A DNA stretch of 63,078 bases, filler included, from Dirinaria sp. TL-2023a (taxonomy: Eukaryota), in assembly GCA_051941275.1 (NCBI GenBank). It is 7 parts of 7 records of this genome, joined end to end, with 100 filler letters (N's around TTAATTAATTAA, not from the genome) between each part and the next. Parts side by side here need not be neighbours in the genome. Positions count along the whole stretch, not along the records: positions 54,175 to 63,078 come from JAVEBF010001126.1; 6 more parts are not named here. One strand, written 5' to 3'. The notes below the pieces were generated by a model. The model was not told the origin of the DNA, made no database searches, and saw only the letters and a program-made list of their open reading frames with translations. Below, piece after piece: positions 8,940 through 63,078 of the stretch. The position numbers were made by a program, and so were the translations under genes. Each line of letters opens with the position of its first letter. Positions within the stretch are counted from its first letter, which is position 1.

Positions 8940-9039
8940 NNNNNNNNNNNNNNNNNNNNNNNNNNNNNNNNNNNNNNNNNNNNTTAATTAATTAANNNNN
9001 NNNNNNNNNNNNNNNNNNNNNNNNNNNNNNNNNNNNNNN
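8940..9039. other. Artificial contig linker N44-TTAATTAATTAA-N44
   Basis: Six-frame stop linker flanked by Ns, identical at all six junctions. Confidence 0.99.
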
Positions 9040-17977: not shown

Positions 17978-18077
17978 NNNNNNNNNNNNNNNNNNNNNNN
18001 NNNNNNNNNNNNNNNNNNNNNTTAATTAATTAANNNNNNNNNNNNNNNNNNNNNNNNNNNNNNNNNNNNNNNNNNNN
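17978..18077. other. Artificial contig linker
   Basis: N44-TTAATTAATTAA-N44. Confidence 0.99.
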
Positions 18078-27012: not shown

Positions 27013-27112
27013 NNNNNNNNNNNNNNNNNNNNNNNNNNNNNNNNNNNNNNNNNNNNTTAATTAATTAANNNNNNNNNNNNNNNNNNNNNNNNNNNNNNNN
27101 NNNNNNNNNNNN
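27013..27112. other. Artificial contig linker
   Basis: N44-TTAATTAATTAA-N44. Confidence 0.99.
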
Positions 27113-33630: not shown

Positions 33631-33926
33631 CCACGATTATTTTATCGAGTGACCTTAGAGAATTGCTATCTTTCAGCACAGCAGCCATGATCTAGACCTC
33701 AGCAGAGGCAAGCATGCAGCCCAATCTCCCAGAAAGCCCTCGGCCACAAAGGAAATGGTTGAGTCAAGATATGAGGGGAAAGCCACGGTTAGTTTGTCGA
33801 GTGACCTTAGAGAATTGCCATCCTTCAGCACATAGCAGAGGCAAGCGTAGCATAGATGCAGCCCAATCTCTTAGAAAGCCCTCGGCCATTAAGGAAATGG
33901 TTGAGTCAAGATACAAGGGGAAAAGG
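33631..33926 (+). repeat. Diverged tandem duplication of an approximately 150-bp unit
   Basis: tcgagtgaccttagagaattgc...agaaagccctcggcca...aaggaaatggttgagtcaagata occurs twice. Confidence 0.9.
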
Positions 33927-36046: not shown

Positions 36047-36146
36047 NNNNNNNNNNNNNNNNNNNNNNNNNNNNNNNNNNNNNNNNNNNNTTAATTAATT
36101 AANNNNNNNNNNNNNNNNNNNNNNNNNNNNNNNNNNNNNNNNNNNN
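36047..36146. other. Artificial contig linker
   Basis: N44-TTAATTAATTAA-N44. Confidence 0.99.
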
Positions 36147-39100
36147 GATAGGTAAACCGCAGGGCTCCGGGTAATAGTAATATCGGGTATATAGTAACCC
36201 ACAATTCCTCGCTTTTCTTATAGATGTTAGGCAATTAATCACACACATACAAACTGCCAAACATAGGTACAATTGACCTCACAAACACCTCCTAAATCTG
36301 ACATTCGGTCTTTGAACTACTTGTCATGATCTTCCCCGAGTCAGGGCCTATACAAGTGGAAGATGACTACCTGTGCATACATTATTTAGGCTTAGTGTGT
36401 TTGCAGAGGCACTGTTTGTATGCTAGGAACTATTGCATCGATAGCTTTTACCTCATTATCATTACCCACCACATCTTGTGCATGACCTCCTTATGACATT
36501 GACCCGTAACACTACTGCACATCACATCGGAACGCTTCCAAGTCTCTGCATATTCAATGGGGCATGGGTAAACTTGCTGATCGCTCTTAGCGCTCTCCAC
36601 AAGTAACCACTTTGTCGCTACTCCAAATCTTTCCCAACGACTCTCTTCGATAAAGCACCTTACTAGATTATTCCCTGCAGACAATACTATCTCACGTAAA
36701 TCAGCTCTGCGAGCCCGGAACCAGCCTCTCGTATCTTCTCCATTGGCACAGCGCGTGCTGATGATCGCCAACTTGGGTCATCCAGGGCGCTAACTTCCCT
36801 GCCACCACTATATCCGTCGGATATCTTTTTCAATCGTATGTTGCACAGGCAAGAAGACCCTTTCGGTCCCTGTATCTGTGGGATTAGCATACCAGAAATA
36901 TCCTCGGTGTCGAATTTCTTACCTTTCTTTACGCCAAAAGTGCGTCGACTGTGACCCTTTAGTGGGCGAAAGCCCGCTTGTCGCGACTGGAGATTGTCGG
37001 TGTCGGTTCTCTGTTTCAAAGCGACTACTTCGACGACTGTATCGAAGACGCCGGTGACACAGGTGTATATAGAGGCATAAGGTAGGTGTATGTCGTTGCG
37101 CAATTCTAGATAGCACGCTAGTCGGCTCGCTTAGCACGGTCACGTGAAAAGCCCTAAGAGTTCATCGAATAAGGTAGCTAAGGTATGTCCGATGTCGATT
37201 ATGATAGCGGCTTGATTGAGATTATAATTCTGCGGTGATGAAGTGATTGTTTGGACTTCGTCGGACAAGGAAACATTAGTACGATACTCTGGCACATGCT
37301 CCTCATGAATATCCCACATGAAGCACCCAAGCAACTGTTGCTTTCTCAGGAATTGGCAATCTCTTTCCGTGGTTTGTTCATAAGGGTCAACGATGTCCAG
37401 TATAAAACAAGTTGAAACCAGCTAATTCTTGAATCGGAAAAGATGTCCACAGTTATGATTCTCGATTGTATTCCTATTTCACTCCCTTGCGAGGATATGT
37501 CTAAGATAATCAGCATATAGCAGCTCTATGGTCTCACTAGCTCGATCAGAATTGATATTGCCACTCTCCATGGCCTTGAACCTCGTGCACCCCTTCAGGA
37601 GTATGAAAAACAAGTATATGTCCAAAGACAATTCAAAAAAGCTTTGCTCAGCAGCAACTTTTCGTCAGATCTCAATCTCCTCTTTACGATCACTTGAAAA
37701 GCTCCATGAACAATTTATTCACCAGCTGCAAATTCAACTTTATTTCGATGTTACTCACCGCTCTTCAGAATACTGCTGCTCACAAGGCTCTGCGCTCTGC
37801 TCTACGTCGAGTTTCCGCTTGAACACTTCAGCCACAATTAATTTCATAGAAGAGGTTTTGAATATGAGAGTGAGCGTTGCCGCCAGGACAGCGGGCGACA
37901 AAGATGTGTCGGCTAATTCAAATTCTCATATAAAAAATGTAGCGGAGGAAACATAGGAAGCCGAGGACCTTCCCCGACTCCGCCTCCACTTGTTTTTTGT
38001 TTCCCGCGCCTTTTTGGAGAGCGTATGAAGCTTTTCACGAGTGATTTTCCTAATCACAAAAATTACAGACTGGAGATGGGTTAGATTCTGGCTAATGGAG
38101 GTTGGAGCATCTAAGGTCGAGAAGATTTTGAGCTCAGATAGAGAAATCTTGCGTAAGACACACCCTCACCTATGCATATCAGATGACTTAGAACTCATTG
38201 ATCACCTAAAGCTTAGACTGGTGTGAGCTGAAGATGCTTCATTTTTCATCTTCTATTCCAGCTGACTGCGCATCATGAATACAAATTTTGAATCGACATG
38301 ATACAGAGACTCGGAGTAAGAGATGACATTATCATATTCCTTGTTATCTTTTCATATAACGTTTACGAGATCTTTTTCTCCGAACACAGAAAAATTAAAA
38401 GGGTACCACTATCGTCACACCACCCTCACTTCACCACCTCAATTCCCTGCCATCTACCCACTCTTTTCCATCAGACAATGTCTCTCTCCCAGATTTTGCT
38501 TGCGCTCTTAACATTTTAACAGATTCACGATTTGACGATGGCACTTCCCTGGTGATCGGCCCATCGTCATTTCGTTCAATCGTCTTTACTTGGAACCCGC
38601 ATACTGAGCGCAGAAGTGGAGATCATTAAGCTTGATGCACGAAAAAGATCGAATACATTACCGAGTGATGGGCGATGTGGAGGCAGTAGTATCCAGTTGC
38701 AAGTACTCCATCTCTCTCTGTGCAAGTCTGTTGTGTTTGCGCTCTGGATAGCTTCCTAATATGTTCTATCTTTCATGGATTCTTTCCATGTATTTCTTCA
38801 ATGTCTCCAGTATAGCAAGCGTGTGGACAGATATCAGTCATTCCCGATTTTCCTCCGAAAAAAATCGATTTCCTGGCTTGAGATCCACGATAGAGGAAAA
38901 CAAACTAGGATCTCAGCGTGTTATGAGATGAAGTAATTTCAAGCCCCTCAACACCACAAAAAAGTGATGCAAAGTCAGTGTTCTTCCACACTCATCCCTT
39001 TCCGTCACTCATTCCGAATTGAAATTCTATGAATTCTAAGTGTTGTTCCTTCTTCACGCTAAACAATCGCCATCATACAAAGCTCCCATTGGAATTGAAG

Positions 39101-41013
39101 AACCATAACATTCTCCTCTCAGAAAGTGAGTGCTTCTTCATCATTGAATTGATACTGAGAATGTGAACGTAGAAGCAACACATACATGCAACACCTCCCC
39201 AGGTGCAACACATCCCCTAGCCCCTTGGGTATTTAAACACGCACTTGCTCCCAGATTCCTCTTCCTTTTCTTTTTACTTTCTCATACTTTCTCACACTCT
39301 ATCTTCTTCGCTATATATTCAGCTACTGCTTTGGCTCTACCTTGGAACATCATAGATACAGTGTCAATTGAAAATACTATCTACTAAGTCACTCAATCTG
39401 CTAATAATGACTTCGCATTATCACTCTGACATCGCTATAAATGTATTCTCTGACACTCCTCCTTGAAAGTCGCTATCCTAGACAGTCCTTGTGTAAGTTA
39501 ATTAACCTGGCATCTTCTGCTAAGACTACGGATCTTACCATCAATTGTAATTGACTCCAGCTATAGGAATACCGTAGTGGTGTACGCTTACATGCCTCTC
39601 CTCTTCTTAAGTCTTCTGCTATGAGCACACCATAAAAGAGGACTATAGAGTTTACCTCCCGAGACCATTTTTATTTATACAAGTCCTTTCAAATCAAACA
39701 TATGTCTCAAAATCTGTGCAAAAGAGCAACTTGAAGCACCAGAGAAGTCTTCTAGCGACTTTACATATCGCTTCCAAATCGTCAGTGACATGATCGCGAG
39801 CCCAAACGTTCTCTCAGCCATGTTGTGCTGGATGTCTGCTTCAAAATCCTCTATAAAAACTTCTTACTTCGAGGCTTTACCATTGCCATCGCGGCCTTGA
39901 ATTGTCAGCCGTTCTTCATTGAAATATCTAGCCGATTGCTGGTATATTTATATAAATCCGTGACACATCATTTACTCCCTCTAAATGAGCCACATCTGTC
40001 TTTCCACGGGCAACTCCGCAAAGAGATGTCCCTGATCGAAGAAAGCAAAGACACATAAGCGCTCGTCGCCTCCTGCGTGCCCTTGACATGCGAGATACGA
40101 GTTTTCGCAACCACAGCGGATCTGACACAGGAAAAGTCGGACGTGGAGAAATGAGCCCGCATATCGACCGCATTGCGGACTCGGAAAAGCGGTTGCGTGA
40201 TCTCCAATACGATACGCTCAAGAAGGAAAAGTGCATCGTGGAGAAGCAGTACGCTGCGTCTCAAAAGCTGCTTCGACAAGTTTTAGACCACGTCCGAGCA
40301 ATCTCAATCAACCTCTTGGTTTCCCCAAGGCCGGATCACAGTGGCAAACTGTCGATCCACGAAAGCGGTCTTGCGAAGGGTCGAGCAACACTCGGATGCT
40401 TCCCGTAATGGAGATCCTGGACAAACGGTTAGCAGAGCTTGAACCTGAAAAGAAAGCTCTTTCTCGAAGCCTGGGAAGCCAAGAGAGCAAGGCTGGGAGC
40501 AAAGTAGGCTGTAACTGTGCCGGAAGTGATACATCCTGGCAGTGAGGATGCAATGGATATCTCCGGCTCGGTCCCACTCGACAAGACTCTATGCTGACCA
40601 CAAGAATCGTGAGGCCGAGTCTACTGAAAAAAGACACAGGGAAATCCTGCCAGCGAGATACGGGCCTCTCCTTCCGAATCAACAAGCATAAGCCGGATGA
40701 GGACGTCTCGAAGAACCCAAATGAACTTTCTCATATCAGTACCCAGATCCGATTAGGTGTCGCTCGGCAATCTCAACAATCCCTCGCTGCACAGCTTGCG
40801 CCTGGGACTGCACCAAGCGTGTCATTTCCATTAAACGCTACTGACCAGAGCGGACCTTCAGCTTCTATTCGTGTACCAAAGAGCCCTTCAAATGGGGGAC
40901 GAGCACCAATCTACGACCCATCGAGGAGAGTTACAATGACAGCACCGGATTCAATTACCCAGAATCTGCCTCAGCTCTCACAATACTACGACTAGAGACA
41001 GAGAGAGCTGGCC

Positions 41014-45063: not shown

Positions 45064-45163
45064 NNNNNNNNNNNNNNNNNNNNNNNNNNNNNNNNNNNNN
45101 NNNNNNNTTAATTAATTAANNNNNNNNNNNNNNNNNNNNNNNNNNNNNNNNNNNNNNNNNNNN
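45064..45163. other. Artificial contig linker
   Basis: N44-TTAATTAATTAA-N44. Confidence 0.99.
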
Positions 45164-54074: not shown

Positions 54075-54174
54075 NNNNNNNNNNNNNNNNNNNNNNNNNN
54101 NNNNNNNNNNNNNNNNNNTTAATTAATTAANNNNNNNNNNNNNNNNNNNNNNNNNNNNNNNNNNNNNNNNNNNN
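54075..54174. other. Artificial contig linker
   Basis: N44-TTAATTAATTAA-N44. Confidence 0.99.
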
Positions 54175-57100
54175 ACTATCCGGGCCACTGCCTATATCTA
54201 TTATCCATTACCTGAGCACTAGCGTTTCCGAGGACTGCCATCTTGCGGAGGCTAACCGTTTTCGTCAACTTTCCACATTTGGTGGCGAACCGGTCCACCC
54301 GGTCCCGGTTTTACATTTTGCAAATGTTCCTCGAGAAGAACGACACTCTCTTCGTCGATATACTTTAAGGGCTTTGAAGCAAAATGTAATAGGACGATTG
54401 TCAGATCTCGATAAAACGCTCTGTGCTCAACAACAGCAGGGACAGACGACTTGCAGTATGATACAATTTCATCTGGCGTGAGAAATGTCAGATTCGGATA
54501 TTGTACCATCGTAGCAGATCCGCCTGCTCGCAGACTCGTATGCAGCACTGTTGTCTGATACAGACGTGATTTCCATATTAGAGATAAGCATCTTCAAATT
54601 CTCGAGAGAGTCACGGCCAAACATCGACGATTCTGTTCCTCAGAGACCCATTAGGACAGAAGTGCTGCATACTCTTGTTTCAGCACTTTTCGGATGCGTG
54701 ATTCCATCCGCAGCGATCCAGGCTTCTCGAATGCGAGTGACGGCTGCACCGTCGACTATAACATTGTTTGCGCCTCAGTGCGACCCACATCAGCTGTCCT
54801 GCTGCGTCGAGAGTTACTGGGTGCTATACATGCATTCGACGACTATTTTGACTGTATTCACAAGTCCATGGGAAAGGGCGAATCGTTTCACGAGATTGGT
54901 TACTTCCATCACAGACTAGATTGTCTAGAGGCCGGCCCGTAACTCAAGTCGTTTTCTCCAAATTGCTCGTACATGCAGTGTCTTCACGTGCTGCGAATAA
55001 GCCGCGCGTGCTCTGTCATACTGATGCTGGTAAAATTAGCTCTTTGCGCGTATCTCTCATCATTGTCAGAGTCGATCGATTTTGTCCCGTAGACTTTGAT
55101 TGTACCCCGACAGTTTTCTTTCCACTCGCTAACATCCTGAATGCAAATTTTATAATCAGAGGATGAACTATTCTTGTCCAACAAACTCGTCGTTGGACGC
55201 ATACAAATCTACACTCTCGTTCGAGCAGTTCATTGACTACAATGGGGTGCGAGAACGTCGCGTCTTTGATTGAAATTCCCTTGATGGGTGTGCTGGCGTC
55301 CGCGAGCTGCTTTGCGCCTTGGATTGCCATGGCTATCGTATCGGTTGCGGGGTAGATAGACCTGCCGTTGATTCTATGGTCTTCTATTCAAGGCGTTTCT
55401 GCGAAATCGAAGAACTTTCGCCACCTAGGCTCAAGAAGGTTCCAATCCATATGACTGGAGTACCAAGGAGCTCAAGCCTTGGAGCTTCGCGCCACAGCGA
55501 ATATCTTCTTATGTCGTTTTCTCACCAATAACTTTGAGAATGGTCGAACGGATACTCATGCAAATTAGTCAGGACAATACGTTTGAAGGCATTCGCTATG
55601 CTAGTTTGATTGATTCGTCCAAAGCTACATGGTAGCCACATGACCAAAGTGATCCAGCCAGACCCAGTATTCCTTCCAACCGGGCTGTTTTCGTGGCAAT
55701 GCATACCTGTAAGATATATTCGCACTCGACGAACTACGTTCGGCAACGAGCTTGGTGGGTCGCTGTAGAGCTGGATGAGGACCAATCTCTACAAGCTCGT
55801 ATATGGCATTTTGGGTTCTAATTCCCAATTTCCGTACACTGCGCGAGATAGAGCCAGTCTTTGTGAGTGCATCAAGGTATCTTACAGGCTGGACCATGTT
55901 TTTGACCCAGTAAGTTGCGGTTGCCAGGCATGCGACGTCTTTGACTGGATCACCAGTCATCGAAGATATCATCTTTATACGATGTGATCGCGTGTCGACT
56001 CGCATACTCAGATCTTCTAGACATCTGTCGTATTCGGCAGCTATCTGATGCATGAACGATGAGTGATATGCTACTCCGGATTTGAGCTTATGGACAACGA
56101 CGTCCATTCTCTCGAATGTAGTCTTGAGCGCGTCAATGTCGCTTTTCAAACACGAGATTGTGACATTTTGAGAGCTGTTGATGATAGCGATATGCATGCT
56201 GATTCAAGCGAGAGACCACCCACAGCATAGCTGCATCGCTCTCAGTAAATACTCGCTACTGGTAGTTTACATTGACTCGTGCTGCAGTAATCTCACCAGA
56301 GGAATGTCTCACTACAAGAGACGGGACTATATTGAATTCCCTTAGCAGCTCGTATAAACTGATGTGTAAAGCTGTTGTCCACGACTGACTATATCTTGGA
56401 CCATGGATGAGGGTACTCTTCTCAGAGCGGCTCAATTCGTCTGCTCGTGTCAGTCACAGATACATTTTAAACAGTCTACGCAATGTTGATGGAACCAAGA
56501 CGACTGACCAATGATTGACCTTGGACAACGCGGCTCAAATAGTGCTTTGTCGCACACTTCAAGAGTGCGCCAATAAGCCAGGTACACCAGAAACGCTGTG
56601 TCCCTCCCATTGTATTGTGCGCCATGGCTGCTGAATCAGGATGAAGTTCCATGCTTCTTGCTTTGGGATAGGCTTGGACTTTTGCGTCTTTCAGCTGATG
56701 CAGACTTGCTACTGAGCTCGCAAGCGCAAAGTATCTCCACGGCAGAGAGCTTGCGCGAAATCTCGAAGATCAACGCTCTAATTGGAACGTGAATGGAGGC
56801 TCAAACTTGAGAAGTAGCGTTCCCAAACTTCCACCATGCGCCTGATAGCACGTTCGTTGGACGCGGACCAGACATATTCTTGGTATTTGCTGTGTTGCGG
56901 ACGTAAGTGATGTTTTGCTGAAACTCACGGCCATAGAGCTATTATCTAAGCCTAGATACTCTCCGCCTTCATTTATGACGACCTCCGAAGCTGCAAATCC
57001 ATGAGACTCCCATTCCGACCTGAAAGATGGGCACGGCGTGTGATCGGTCAAGTCGCTAGCAGTTGATCCGCGAATATTTTCGCTGAGCATCGGCGGCTTC

Positions 57101-58159
57101 TGTATCGTGCAATGCCGAGCCACAAGGGTTCTTGACCCGAGGTAGTGGTAGGCGTCATCTAAAATTGCATGAGTTCGACTTGCCCAAACCGAATGATGCT
57201 ACGGAGCTCTCCATTATCCAGTGATGGGCCAAGAAGTCAAATTGGTGGGGAACTGCTCATATATTCGAGTGAGTGGACATCAGCTAAAGTGTCGCTGAGT
57301 GTACTGGAGTTCTGGAAATTCAGCATCCATGGGTTGACTGTCTCAAATCCGCGTTCGGAGGAATGACGCCCTTTTCAATGACCAGGACTATCTTAATCAG
57401 GCCTGCCACACCGCTTCTTCCTTCAAGATGTTCGATACTTTCTTTGCCAACTCTACTAGAAACCATCAGAATCTCTAAATCTGATCTCCAACGCAGGATA
57501 CTCCAACTTACACGAACAGCGGGTTTCAAATGCTACGAGCGATTCTGCAACAAAATTCCGATGACTCTCGCTTCGATACGATCTCTGTCAGATTTTAATG
57601 ATATGGAGACGAATTGAAAGTCTTTTGTATATGTATTTGATGCTCAATTGCCAAAAATTAAAGAACTTTAGTGGGAGGTGATAACCCAGGGTCTGCTGAC
57701 TAATGTACAGTCTAACCGCTTTCGTCAAACCATACTTGGCATTTTATTAGTGGTGGGGAGTTTCTCTCAGTCTTACAACCTCCAATTGAAGTTGCAATAT
57801 CTGTAGATCATCGCGATGAGGAAACTCATTGAGCAACAGCTACGAAGATGCTTTCACCATGAGCCTTAAGTAACCTTGTGTAGTCGTAATTCAATTTGGC
57901 TTTACTAATAGGTATCTGTAATCAACACTACCTAGGACTCCTTACTCGGCTGAGTTAATCTTGGAATATGGCTATCCTGGTTTGATCCTGTAGCTCTTAC
58001 TATGAGCCTTATCGGATTTCCGTCTCTGGTTGCATTCTCTAGTCGCTTTGGTAGCACTACGCCAATGCCTTCGCCTCGAGAGTAGCCATTGGCTCTATGG
58101 TCAAATTTATAGCGGCGGTCATTTGGCGAAAGTGTTGTCACACCTTTCATTAAGGACAC
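54175..58159 (-). pseudogene. Reducing iterative type I PKS relic (KS-AT-DH fragments)
   Basis: KS: FDHRANGYSRGEG, GSNQD, EHLEG.SG.AGLIK. AT: HSSGEI, VAYHS, YWVKNMVQPV, EIGPH. Linker YPFDH..SYW. DH: P*IEDHRING...YPA. Many stops and frameshifts, and the KS N-terminus is not seen. Confidence 0.9.
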
Positions 58160-58457
58160 TGTTTTTTCACAACTTGATCTGGGAGGTAATGGATGCTTTC
58201 TTCCAAGTCATAACGATCGGGATGTCCTTGATCCGAGCTCTGAAACGTACGGCCCTTTCTTCAGGCATCAGAAAAGGGATAGACGGCTGTGCTTGCCTTG
58301 AAACAAGATCACCCAAGTAATCTCCCTCCTTTCTCGCACCATTTCTTTCTTCCCATTCGATGCTTAGAGGCTTAAAGTAAGCACACTTTAGGTCCCCAGA
58401 GACGCAATTTGTCGCTTCTAGATGTTCAAAGAATTACATTGACTCTACATTGACAGA

Positions 58458-61400
58458 ATGACGAGGTCCGCCAGCGTGACACCAAGCCTCTGGGATCAGA
58501 CTTTCGACTCATTAGACAGCGGTCTAAGGAAGAGCTTGAATTCGACAAGGACACATAAGCGCGATATTTTGGTGAGCACTTTCCCGGAGATCAACTAGCC
58601 ATCACTGACGAGACTCAGGAGGCTGTGCTCAAAGAGATTGAGGCTAAAAGAGACTTGGCTTTACGCAAAAGATGGAAATTCAAGAAGCCCAACGGCGATA
58701 TTGTCGTCGTGCGTGATGTGCTCGGAAAATTCGCGAGATGGATCTACAGATTCAAGGAGACGGGTGATGTTGTCGCCCAGTACAACCCCGCTCACCTTTC
58801 GCTACAGTGGGCGGCTTTCAGGTTCGTTCTTCAAATATCTGTCTCTGAGATTCAGGTATTTGGAGCTATGGCTGATGATTGTAAGTCCGGATGGAATGTT
58901 TGGCAGCGCACAGGAGCGAGCATGCCTGATATTGGTGGAAGCCAAGCTAATTCAACGACGCAGTGGAGAATATTGCCCGCATCATCACCCGTTATCGCGA
59001 GTTCGAGCGTCTTTATCTGCAGGCAACAAAATCTGAGCTGGAGTTGATGTTACAGAAGGCTTTAATTCGTCTCTATGTGGAGATACTGACCCGTCTGGCT
59101 CGCGGTGTGAGTTTCTTCCGAGAGAAATCCATTAGTGAGTTACGTTTCTTGCACCTTCTGTTGTATCCTGGGAGACCTTCTCGTCACGGTAGGAGGCCCA
59201 AGGGAGCGCATTGTTGCAAGCTCTCCCTATCAGGATCCGCCGTGCCAAATGGAGATGATTATCAATCCACGCTGCGGGGGTCTAAGATATTCTTGAATAT
59301 ACGAGCTAATGTCCGGCAGTCCGCTTAATCAAGACGCCTTTTCGCACGGTAGACGAGAAACAACTGCACCAAGTTCTAGCCCAGGAAGCTGAAGTTCTCA
59401 AGATTGCCAAGCTAATAGACACCGACAAAATACTAAACCTCGAGGCTGCTGTCACAAGGCTCTCGGTACAACCTAACATGTATTCTCAGTCACTATCAGA
59501 TCAGAAGTATGAACGCTTCCTGAAATGATTGTCGCTCTTACCATATTACAGCTATCATCAATTTATCTCACACTCCCGATTCGCCAACCTCGGGAAATGA
59601 CTGCTTAACAATCAGAACTATATCGATTGGCAAGCGTCGAATTCACCTTCCATACTTTTGATGCATGGCATCACAGGCTCGGGAAAATCCATGTTGTGCT
59701 CGATGATTGTGGACGCTTTATTGTCTACTGCTAAAAATGATCCATCCGTGGCCCCATTTGAATACATCTATTGTGCAAACCCCGACTTCGAAGAAGCGCC
59801 CTGTTCTTCTGATGCTGTGATGCGATCTATACTCGGTCAACTTGCTCTCGATAGAACTGGCCGACGTACAGTCAAGAATTTCCTATATTCGGAGTATGAG
59901 CGCCAAATTGCAATCGCAAATGTTAACGGTGTGGAGCTACCAAGGTTAAGAACGCAAGATTGCGTTCGACTTATGCTGGAGCTTGCTGAACAAGATTCAT
60001 TATCCATTATAATCGACGCCATTGATACCTTCAAAAAGAGTGAACGACATGCTCTTGTTTCCACATTGGAAGAAATCGTTCTGAAAGCCGACAATGTAGT
60101 CAAAGTTTTGGTAACGAGCAGAAGTAGCAACATTGCAGCAATCGAGCTGACTGTCAATAAGCAGATCCAGATCACTAGCGATGAAACTAAACAAAATATG
60201 AAGAGTTTCGTCAATCATCTCATTGACACTGTGATTACGAGCAAGCTGCTCCTCGAAGGGAGGGTATCTCCAGCTTTGCGTAACATGCTAATAAAATCAC
60301 TTCTTGATGGAGCTGAGAAAATGTAAGTGTCTTCGTTGATCAGTGAACACTCAGGGTAACTGGAACAGGTTTCTCTGGGTCAAATTGCAAATTGAACGTC
60401 TTTGTCGAGAGAAGACTGAGGATGACGTTGTGATGGCATTAGAGAGCAATCTTCCAGAATACTTAAATCAGCTCTACGAAAAGTCATTGAGTCACATCTT
60501 TGAGATTGGCATGACCGCCCGCGATGCTGCCATCAGAATCTTTTCTTGAATGCTTCACATGAGAGAACCATTGACACCATCAGCTCTCTTGACCGCCGTT
60601 TGCAACGGCCAAAAGTCGACCATGAAGCTCTCTGAATTGATGACGCTATGTGCGAATTTGGTCGCTTTGGACAAATATTGCAATGTCATACGCTTTGCCC
60701 ATGAATCGATCAAGGACTTCTTATCGCGTCATGACGCTTTTACAGGCGCAGTAGCGCATAATCTTCTTGCCTCGACTTGTATTGAAGTCTGCTCTCAAGG
60801 TCCTGTTTCTGGAAGAAGCTTACAATATCCAAGCGATGATTTCTATGTTTATGCCGCAATCTACTGACCTGTCCACTCAGAAAAGGTCGAGAACTTGGCA
60901 GCGAATAAAGACATCGTCAACAAAATGATCTCTTTCATCTTCGATGAGGATTTTGACATCACTTTGTCCTTCGGCTCCTGGCTTGAAACGAGACAAGAAA
61001 TCGTTTCAATGCTTGCTAATGATCATGCTATGAAATTAACTTTGGATGCAATCCCTACTGACGATGCTGGACCTTTCTTCTTGATCAGCGTGTTTGAACT
61101 GACCAGCCTCTTACGAGTGATGTTGAAGCACATGGTCAATCTCAATGTGAATCAAAAGAATGAAATTGACCATACACCTATCTATCTTGCAGCTGCGCTG
61201 GAACATTCGGCTATTCTCTCTCTATTCGTCGACCACGAAGCTGAAGTCAACGTTCAGTGCGGGCAGTATGACAGTCCACTCCACGCGGCATGTTTCGCAG
61301 GGCATCTAAAAGCAGTCAAAACCCTCCTCGAGCTTGATGCGAACACATCTTGTGATATGATGTTTGATGACGCTTTTGAGGCTGCATGTCGGGGTAATCA

Positions 61401-63078
61401 AGAGGGTGTGGCATTATTTCTAATTGACAGCTCTATAGTCAGATCCGAGAACGACTATGAAAAGGTTCTTGAAGGCGCTGCTCGTGCAGGTTTTGTTGAT
61501 GTAGTCGAAAAACTCCAAGAACCACCATTCCGGTTCTTTACGAACAGCACCCCTGATCAAGTCAGGAAGAAGACGAGGGAGGCCATAGAAGGGGGCCAGC
61601 TTGGCGTCATTCGTCAATTCCTTGATCAGCAAACAAACAGGAGAGATGTATTGCCATTAGACGGCATTGCCCTTGCGACCTTGTACAATCATAGGACCCG
61701 AGTACAATTCCTCCTAGGCGAAGGTCTGAGTGTACAAGCCGAAGGAGCATTTGGAACGCCGCTGAGGACAGCTTGTCTTCTCAACTACCAGCCCATAGCT
61801 CGCTTGTTATTGGACAGAGGGGCAGATATCAATTCTTGCGGAGTCTTTGATGACGCACTTCAAGCTGCGACGATGAAGAGGCACACAAAGATTGCAAAAC
61901 TCATCACAGAAGAAGACGCCAATGTGAATCAGCAAGGCGGGTTCTATGGAGGGCCCTGCAAGGCAGGGTGGAAGTGTCTAGATGCCATGGCACTATTGCC
62001 ACTTTCGGGATGGCAGTTATTGTCGTCTCAAAAACTTTTTCGAATACGATTAAAAATTTCAACGACGAAATTTTCATCAGAGATTTTTGACATTATACAT
62101 GACAGTTTTTTAGATGACAGTTTTTTGATCGACTTGATTGCAAATTTGCAAAAAATTTTCGATTTTTTTCGCATTATACATGACAGTTTTTTTATCAGTG
62201 ACAAAATGTCGAATTTGTCGATATATAACATATAATGTTTCATCGACATTTTTTTTGATTTTCATATTTGTTTCATCGTCTGTTTATTATCGCACTCGAT
62301 ATCGCATTGCGAAAACGTTTTCTGATTCACTCATTTCAGATATCGATCGCGTAAATAGATGAAGTTGCTGACGTTTGAGACAGCATGTTTTTGAGGCAGG
62401 TTTTGCTTGCTAGATAGTCGCTTTTGGCGCCGGCGAAGCCCAAAATCTAATATAGTGACTTACATCATTTGGTCCCCATGAGGCATCGAAAGCACTTCCA
62501 CAGCTCCACAAGCTGCAGCATACCATGGTCATCACAGTACAGTAGAGTTTTTGCTTGACGCTGGTGCTGATGTGCATGCTAAAGGGTACTCCAAGGATGC
62601 TTTTCATGCTGCTGCCGAAGGAGGACTTCAAGATGTCATAATGCTGATGCTTCGAAAGGGCTATCAGATCCATCATCCATTAAGCAAGCGACGGTTTTTC
62701 AGGGGAAAACCGTCGCCGTATAAAGCACTGATGCGAGATGCATCTCCTGGACGTGTTCTTGATCCGTCTAGAAAGACAGTCATTTCGAGCTTGGGAAGTT
62801 GACTCTGCTACAGCCACGAGGCCTATTATCAAGCTAGAGACCGTTTTCAGATTAGCAGAACAAAACCCAGAGATGATTGGGGTGCAATCCGAGAAGGTCC
62901 CAAATGCTGGCTACATTTCGAGATCCTACGCACGGCATCGGGAAAATTATCCACTTGAGGCTGCCGCTTCAGCGGGCCAAGAAGCGAGTGTCAAAGTGCT
63001 TTTGGAACAACGTGAGGTGTTGGGCATTCCAGAAGACGAGATCAGTGATGCTATCAAACTGACTGCCTCAAATTCTCA
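58458..63078 (+). pseudogene. NLR-like STAND gene (helical N-terminal domain - NACHT - ankyrin repeats), disrupted
   Basis: N-domain RWKF...VRDV..K..RW..RFK..GD..AQY.P.H.SL.WA..RF.LQ; Walker A HGITGSGKS; Walker B IIIDAID; KVLVTSR; FLWVKLQ; IRFAHES; ankyrin repeats. In-frame TGA at 59526, 59598, 60547 and 60865, and an insertion near 61960-62500. Confidence 0.9.
61962..62503. mobile_element. Non-autonomous TIR-bounded (MITE-like) insertion in the ankyrin region
   Basis: The ankyrin frame QGGFYG resumes about 550 bp later as QAAAYHGH. Imperfect inverted ends GTGGAAGTG..GATGCC.ATGG / CCATG.GGCATC..CACTTCCAC. Internal direct repeat cattatacatgacagtttttt. Exact ends are uncertain. Confidence 0.7.

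Follow-up and report, generated by a model that had tools for sequence, protein, structure and literature searches.

Coding-strand G>A changes in a GpG context mark a young NLR pseudogene of the lichen-forming fungus Dirinaria

We analysed a 63,078-nucleotide stretch of DNA from Dirinaria sp. TL-2023a (hereafter the window), and the region described here is the whole of its last piece, positions 54175-63078, a single 8904-bp contig of this Dirinaria metagenome-assembled genome (MAG). Dirinaria is a lichen-forming fungus. The contig carries two gene relics lying head to head, a NOD-like receptor (NLR) pseudogene on the + strand and a polyketide synthase (PKS) pseudogene on the - strand. The NLR relic is a young pseudogene whose damage, besides a 549-nt insertion and a 1-nt frameshift, consists almost entirely of G>A changes on the coding strand. 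These changes have a narrow spectrum, fall mainly at the second G of GG (on the other strand, C>T at a C followed by C, or CpC), are strongly strand-biased, show no canonical repeat-induced point mutation (RIP) signature, and contrast with the mixed changes of the adjoining PKS relic. An earlier note on this DNA had proposed, from stop codons and altered glycines, that both relics were struck by a RIP-like C>T mutator preferring CpC.

All four in-frame stops of the NLR relic are TGA codons at sites where intact homologs have Trp (Table 1), as the earlier note had read them. The second G of GG is also what has changed in glycine codons: among 45 that are conserved, 34 still encode Gly, nine encode Asp or Glu, one Asn and one Arg. 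Six Gly to Asp/Glu changes had been cited from the ankyrin repeats, and five are specific to the relic (DHTP at 61168, ALEH at 61201, HEAEVN at 61237, YDSPLH at 61270 and EDANVN at 61915); at these positions 20-21 of 21 homologs carry Gly. The sixth does not stand: of the six intact homologs nearest to the relic, five also have the Asp of LDAN (61336), which was therefore inherited rather than mutated. That TGA is instead read as Trp or read through, so that the NLR gene is alive, would suit stops confined to TGA at Trp sites and the open stretch of 455 codons after the last of them. This is extremely improbable, given the nine conserved glycines turned to Asp or Glu, including ankyrin glycines invariant in 21/21 homologs, and given the insertion and the frameshift: reading TGA as Trp does not make the frame intact and conserved. 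Furthermore, TGG still serves for Trp elsewhere in the relic, intact homologs have Trp and no stop at these sites, and under the standard code other pieces of the window contain open reading frames (ORFs) 1377 and 1574 codons long.

To quantify context, we scored each residue-altering G or C in 622 NLR codons with homolog agreement, defined as at least 80% among at least six homologs after position 60340 and full agreement among at least three before it. G>A had occurred at 23/97 sites preceded by G, compared to 4/64 after A, 5/66 after C and 2/106 after T (after G 23/97 versus 11/236 in the other contexts; Fisher odds ratio (OR) 6.4, p 1e-6). Coding-strand C>T was found at 3/44 sites followed by C and at 0/167 followed by A, G or T (p 0.009), and with both changes pooled the OR rose to 8.1 (p 5e-9). 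C>T mutation favouring CpC has thus acted on the NLR relic, as had been claimed, and the spectrum is not dominated by CpA: TpG>TpA, the canonical RIP context, is the least mutated. The enrichment holds when only first codon positions are counted, where the neighbouring base comes from the previous codon (GpG 10/43 versus 9/165, p 0.001).

The base on the other side of the mutated G also matters, with rates of 8/30 before A, 8/33 before C and 6/15 before T as against 1/19 before G, and the motif on the cytosine strand is therefore 5'-D[C]C. C>T at this motif on the template strand corresponds to 5'-G[G]H on the coding strand, and about a quarter of such sites in conserved codons are mutated. 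Changes on the coding strand were far more frequent as G>A (34/333) than as C>T (3/211, p 3e-5), a bias also seen within the preferred context (GpG 23/97 versus CpC 3/44, p 0.019). These results imply that the mutated cytosines lay mostly on the template strand of the NLR gene.

The spectrum is also nearly pure. At 134 NLR positions identical in at least 12 intact homologs the relic differs at 11, and these comprise eight G>A changes, all of them after G (GpG 8/32 versus 0/53 for other G, p 2e-4), one C>T at CpC, one T>C and one ambiguous change, with no certain transversion; nine of the 11 are therefore C:G>T:A transitions, the class to which RIP is almost confined. In a focal-lineage test over 475 positions the relic had 65 private changes, 26 of them G>A, whereas 18 intact homologs pooled had 144 G>A among 635 (relic excess, p 0.0035). 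The relic's other changes (39) do not exceed those of its closest relative P0171 (43), so the excess is almost purely of one mutation type. As a control on the method, the intact ortholog DNA L001, taken through the same procedure, was changed at 14/383 sites with G>A at 0/213. The signal is hence not a creation of the procedure, with the caveat that L001's own branch is short.

L001, one match from a scan of JGI metagenome contigs, allowed a comparison at the DNA level. It is 77.1% identical to the relic over 58346-61329, collinear with introns included, and carries Trp at all four NLR stop sites. Since the pairwise counts are unpolarised and noisy per trinucleotide, we used them solely as contrasts between the forward direction (L001 to relic) and the reverse. 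The contrast expected for the NLR pattern was present, with GG>GA in excess (31/157 forward, 11/114 reverse); GG>AG stood at 15/157 and 12/114, CC>TC at 24/140 and 16/117, and TG>TA at 24/223 and 13/222. The GpG excess was present both at codon positions 1 and 2 (27/102 forward, 7/70 reverse) and at position 3 (12/32 and 3/20), and among trinucleotides the net excess of G>A was greatest for GGA (19/59 versus 5/41). Transitions toward A/T exceeded their reverse on both strands (G>A 152 versus 87, C>T 136 versus 83) and transversions were balanced. We do not count this general GC>AT shift as hypermutation, because it lies mostly at third codon positions and goes with a difference in third-position GC (58% in L001, 50% in the relic).

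The PKS relic behaves differently. It matches the Pfam domains ketoacyl-synt, Ketoacyl-synt_C, Acyl_transf_1 and PKS_DH_N, and was compared to P0012 (39-56% identical, in tblastn pieces and for the acyltransferase-dehydratase (AT-DH) part only) and to distant PKSs. The three sites that the earlier note had cited as showing the same pattern are correct: the TGA in P*IEDH replaces an invariant Trp, Gly>Glu at 57433 falls on a residue that is Gly in 6/6 homologs, and Gly>Asp at 55342 on one that is Gly in 4/8. The gene as a whole does not follow them. CpC-type changes were not significantly enriched overall (15/109 versus 24/274 for others, OR 1.7, p 0.19); they were modestly enriched in the better aligned AT-DH part, on both strands (9/53 versus 7/140, p 0.015), and not in the ketosynthase (KS)-linker part (6/56 versus 17/134). 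Among 101 positions invariant in at least five homologs, 23 had changed, by seven G>A, three C>T, eight transversions, three multi-step and two ambiguous changes, with CpC-type sites altered at 4/28 and other contexts at 6/67. Only 10 of the 23 are G>A or C>T, in contrast to the near-exclusive transitions of RIP, and the ratio of G>A to C>T (29 to 10) is no different from that in intact homologs (144 to 58). The AT-DH part, aligned to P0012, contains 10 frame changes, and 11 in-frame stops have support from at least three homologs, of which just one falls on a Trp site and just one on a Gln site. When stops are instead counted across 54175-58153 on the - strand in frames aligned to any homolog, there are 29: 18 TGA, eight TAG and three TAA, again with a single stop on a Trp site and a single one on a Gln site.

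The PKS relic is thus an older pseudogene in ordinary, mixed-spectrum decay. CpC-type changes make up 9/11 of the invariant-site changes in the NLR relic as against 4/23 in the PKS relic (p 5e-4), and the adjacent relics therefore do not share one neutral spectrum. This contrast bears on the plainest account of the contig, in which two unitary pseudogenes decay neutrally and GG>GA arises by chance or by ascertainment at Trp and Gly codons. The PKS relic and the inherited LDAN site fit such an account, G>A is the commonest inferable replacement in intact homologs too, and the pairwise GC>AT shift runs through all contexts. Neutral decay is nonetheless very unlikely for the NLR relic, since the enrichment is present at first codon positions and, against L001, at third positions, and since invariant sites show it without a certain transversion.

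Indices based on TpA miss the pattern, as the earlier note had predicted. Across three 3-kb windows of the contig, TpA/ApT was 0.49-0.67 and (CpA+TpG)/(ApC+GpT) 1.26-1.59, so that both were negative by the thresholds given in the RIPCAL paper, PMC2621366 (at least 0.89 and at most 1.03, respectively). The GC content of the contig is 46%. Its RIPCAL-type index (CC+GG)/(TC+GA), 0.54, is the lowest among the seven pieces of the window (0.65-0.89 in the other six) and remains low after GC correction (Mann-Whitney p 0.003).

Our tentative reading is that a single short episode of strand-biased, context-specific C>T mutation of RIP kind scarred the NLR gene, and we give this somewhat less than half of our confidence. 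RIP acts before meiosis on sequences duplicated within one genome (roughly at least 400 bp and more than 80% identical) and depends on a RID/Masc1-type or DIM-2 methyltransferase. Single RIP events are polarised to one strand. Like RIP in Neurospora crassa and other Pezizomycotina, the damage in the NLR relic is nearly pure C:G>T:A, dense and gene-sized, has its context set by the base lying 3' of the cytosine, shows one-strand polarity, and has created stops and killed the gene. Unlike RIP, its dinucleotide is CpC rather than CpA, CpG or CpT, and CpA/TpG is the least mutated; TpA is not raised, GC stands at 46%, a duplicate partner has not come to light, and the stops are TGA from TGG instead of TAG or TAA. 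A precedent comes from Podospora, in which the duplicated NLR genes nwd6 and nwdp-2 are described in PMC13449251 as RIP targets. Like the relic, these NLR genes are of the NACHT class, carry a repeat sensor domain and became pseudogenes chiefly through C>T/G>A changes; they differ in a CpA/CpT context, AT-rich alleles and a known duplicate. We rank a RIP-like event first because the 3' base decides, because the damage is gene-sized and polarised to one strand, and because of this Podospora precedent. The enzyme responsible would recognise its target cytosine by the following (3') base, in the manner of DNA-methyltransferase-like enzymes, and would act mostly along one strand. The burst would probably have been triggered while the NLR gene existed as two similar copies, as in Podospora, and the gene would have taken its specific damage with little time elapsing since. 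What we infer rather than observe is the enzyme, an earlier duplication, when the burst took place and that there was only one.

Several observations weigh against a RIP-like burst. The whole case comprises about 26 polarised events at one locus in one MAG. Self-comparison of the window found no second copy or repeat of the contig in its other six pieces, and among 118 NLR homologs of 857-2729 aa there was no second Dirinaria protein. Compared with L001, GG>GA was not in excess in introns and upstream sequence (5/23 forward, 6/24 reverse), in a noncoding comparison of low power (448 sites, 33% mismatch). Evidence from composition is weak because GG and CC are natively scarce in this gene family (observed/expected (o/e) 0.84 and 0.78 in the intact ortholog L001, as against 0.75 and 0.74 for the relic). 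RIP as described so far favours CpA, or CpG/CpT in some fungi, according to PMC2621366, and 10.1101/344036 gives a CpA preference for both the RID and the DIM-2 pathways of Neurospora. Lichen fungi of the same class, Cladonia and Xanthoria, have ordinary low-GC RIP according to PMC12542154 and 10.1101/2025.11.25.690456. Finally, the coding-strand bias is equally explained by guanine damage combined with transcription-coupled repair.

The main and a serious rival is guanine alkylation, which is known to produce this context together with this strand bias and had not been considered in the earlier reading of the mechanism. SN1 alkylators prefer 5'-GG. O6-alkylguanine arises preferentially where a purine precedes the G and pairs with T, and the resulting G>A would accumulate on the coding strand because transcription-coupled repair clears the template strand; the pseudogene would then reveal a lineage-wide episode or habit, caused for example by loss of O6-alkylguanine repair or of mismatch repair. 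The context matches COSMIC single base substitution signature 11 (SBS11), which goes with the alkylating drug temozolomide and a mismatch-repair defect; PMC8565797 describes it as consisting mostly of C>T where the C precedes C or T, and the non-transcribed strand in SBS11 has G>A above its complement according to PMC11817618. The NLR relic shares both the C>T at C before C and the strand excess, its largest net G>A excess is at GGA, the AT-DH part of the PKS relic is CpC-enriched too, and no other piece of the window has a (CC+GG)/(TC+GA) as low as the contig's. We nevertheless regard alkylation as unlikely. SBS11 also includes CpT (ApG), acts genome-wide and is somatic in human tumours, whereas the relic is one germ-line locus in which ApG (4/64) is not above CpG (5/66) while GpG is raised. 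A genome-wide process should also have marked the PKS relic alike, yet transversions make up 8/23 of its invariant-site changes compared to none certain among 11 in the NLR relic. The other six pieces have no strong CC/GG depletion (o/e 0.86-1.09), and the transcribed introns, at low power, carry no excess.

The density and one-strandedness of the changes (23 polarised GpG events in 4.6 kb, with 11 falling inside an 820-nt stretch) also bring to mind a kataegis-like cluster, formed if the locus was once single-stranded during break repair or replication stress and one strand was deaminated, chemically or by an AID/APOBEC-like enzyme. The almost pure C>T and the lack of a clean signal in the adjoining PKS relic agree with this. 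Known AID/APOBEC-family deaminases, however, are guided by the base 5' of the C (TC, WRC, or CC when its 3' C is the one edited), whereas in the NLR relic the 3' base decides and the 5' base need merely be other than C, with similar rates for A, G and T. APOBEC3G hypermutates retroviral DNA so that the first G changes (GG>AG, TGG>TAG). The NLR relic resembles its products in coding-strand G>A at GG and in Trp codons turned to stops, but here it is the second G that changes (GG>GA, TGG>TGA), GG>AG is not in excess against L001, and the introns are kept, so the relic is no retrocopy. In addition, the events are spread across the entire 4.6-kb gene with no single tight cluster. We therefore consider a kataegis-like origin quite unlikely.

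The earlier note had attributed a CpC mutator to the organism as a whole; this is not supported, since the clean signal comes from one gene alone and the adjacent PKS spectrum is broad. Its proposals that the mutator is repeat-directed and that RID/Masc1-type specificity is altered likewise find no support here. In the RIP literature, supplements and subscription journals being outside our coverage, no RIP-like signature dominated by CpC came up. It is doubtful, but conceivable, that Caliciaceae lichen fungi, or at least this Dirinaria, have a gene-scale, strand-polarised mutator converting the 5' C of CC (5'-D[C]C) to T, with a specificity unlike all described RIP and invisible to TpA indices, that knocks out genes, NLRs among them, which are duplicated or marked in some other way, at near-constant GC. 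Genome-wide detection of RIP rests almost solely on CpA>TpA indices and low GC, and a C>T defence or mutator acting in CpC context would escape such screens while its pseudogenes are annotated as genes. An enzymatic process would suggest that lichen fungi have a cytosine-modifying enzyme whose sequence preference is new; guanine alkylation combined with transcription-coupled repair would instead offer a rare look at a germ-line damage signature in a slow-growing symbiotic fungus.

The public annotation illustrates the annotation problem on this contig: the protein P0001 (58458-60549) models the dead NLR as a 526-aa product by splicing out the first two TGA codons and ending at the third, so that a pseudogene is annotated as a gene. 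The relic matches Pfam NPHP3_N (1.1e-24) and Ank_2 (1e-22) and retains the introns of its intact ortholog (gaps 58572-58618, 58880-62, 59134-59318 and 60324-60369); an origin as a retrocopy was rejected on this ground. A query with the NACHT part first returned Colletotrichum proteins of about 50% identity, and a query with the part after NACHT gave closer intact homologs from lichen fungi, P0171-P0176, at 70-77%. The closest is P0171 (77%), with P0172-P0175 at 69-74% and the full-length P0176, from a Heterodermia MAG, at 70%; further lichen homologs include P0179 (Pseudocyphellaria) and P0186 (Lecanora). Because close intact homologs exist in lichen fungi, the gene is native to them. Most of the metagenome-derived homologs among P0171-P0185 begin either exactly past the site of the 46-nt intron or at a Met inside the protein, and these truncated starts are probably an effect of intron-blind gene callers rather than true loss of NACHT.

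The choice of homologs and aligner affected what could be seen. The Colletotrichum set was too distant (4/26 Gly changed at 410 conserved positions, a signal that looked weak) and was replaced by the closer lichen homologs. Proteins were aligned to DNA with a purpose-written, frameshift-aware dynamic-programming aligner; plain tblastn high-scoring segment pairs had crossed frameshifts of the PKS relic and given spurious stops.

The 549-nt insertion is not present in P0003, P0171 or P0176, whose alignments run across the site. It holds short internal direct repeats with units of about 23-28 nt, and shows no clear terminal inverted repeats and no clear target duplication. A small non-autonomous element or the gain of an intron could account for it.

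Table 1. Features of the window, in coordinates of the whole stretch
Feature	Position	Strand	Remarks
NLR pseudogene	58458..63078	+	N-terminal helical domain, NPHP3_N/NACHT, ankyrin repeats; continues past contig end
TGA (K*LS)	59526..59528	+	homologs Trp
TGA (GK*LL)	59598..59600	+	homologs Trp
TGA (FS*ML)	60547..60549	+	lichen-homolog consensus Trp; Cys in 2/4 Colletotrichum homologs
TGA (Y*PVH)	60865..60867	+	invariant Trp, in 20/20 homologs aligned
Ankyrin stretch	61097..61916	+	11/23 polarised GpG>GpA events, 8 of the 11 Gly>Asp/Glu
Insertion	61951..62499	+	549 nt, AT-rich (GC 36.5%), interrupts ankyrin repeat
1-nt frameshift	62773..62773	+	poorly conserved linker of NLR; frameshift-aware alignments to P0176 and P0171
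PKS pseudogene	54318..58153	-	KS-AT-DH and onward; ~215 N-terminal residues missing; runs toward contig end
TGA (P*IEDH)	55388..55390	-	invariant Trp of PKS DH domain, in 7/7 homologs
Spacers	8940-9039, 17978-18077, 27013-27112, 36047-36146, 45064-45163, 54075-54174		non-genomic joins

The two relics lie close together, the PKS remnant ending about 300 nt from the start of the NLR relic. Homology to L001 begins at 58346, and the upstream part of L001 (1-885) has no similarity to PKS; a rearrangement may have joined the two relics.

The window consists of seven pieces of about 8.9 kb each with spacers (N44-TTAATTAATTAA-N44) between them, and neighbours across a spacer are therefore not linked. 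A sequencing or DNA-damage artefact was considered and rejected, as the other pieces hold long intact ORFs. In one of these pieces, the region 36147-41000 has GC 0.40-0.44 and no ORF of at least 150 codons; screened as a possible second relic, its 19 ORF pieces gave no credible Pfam match. Its (CC+GG)/(TC+GA) of 0.44-0.53 is low mostly on account of GC. Self-BLAST of the seven pieces revealed a sole internal repeat, two adjacent direct copies of about 150 nt each at 33631-33923 that are 80% identical.

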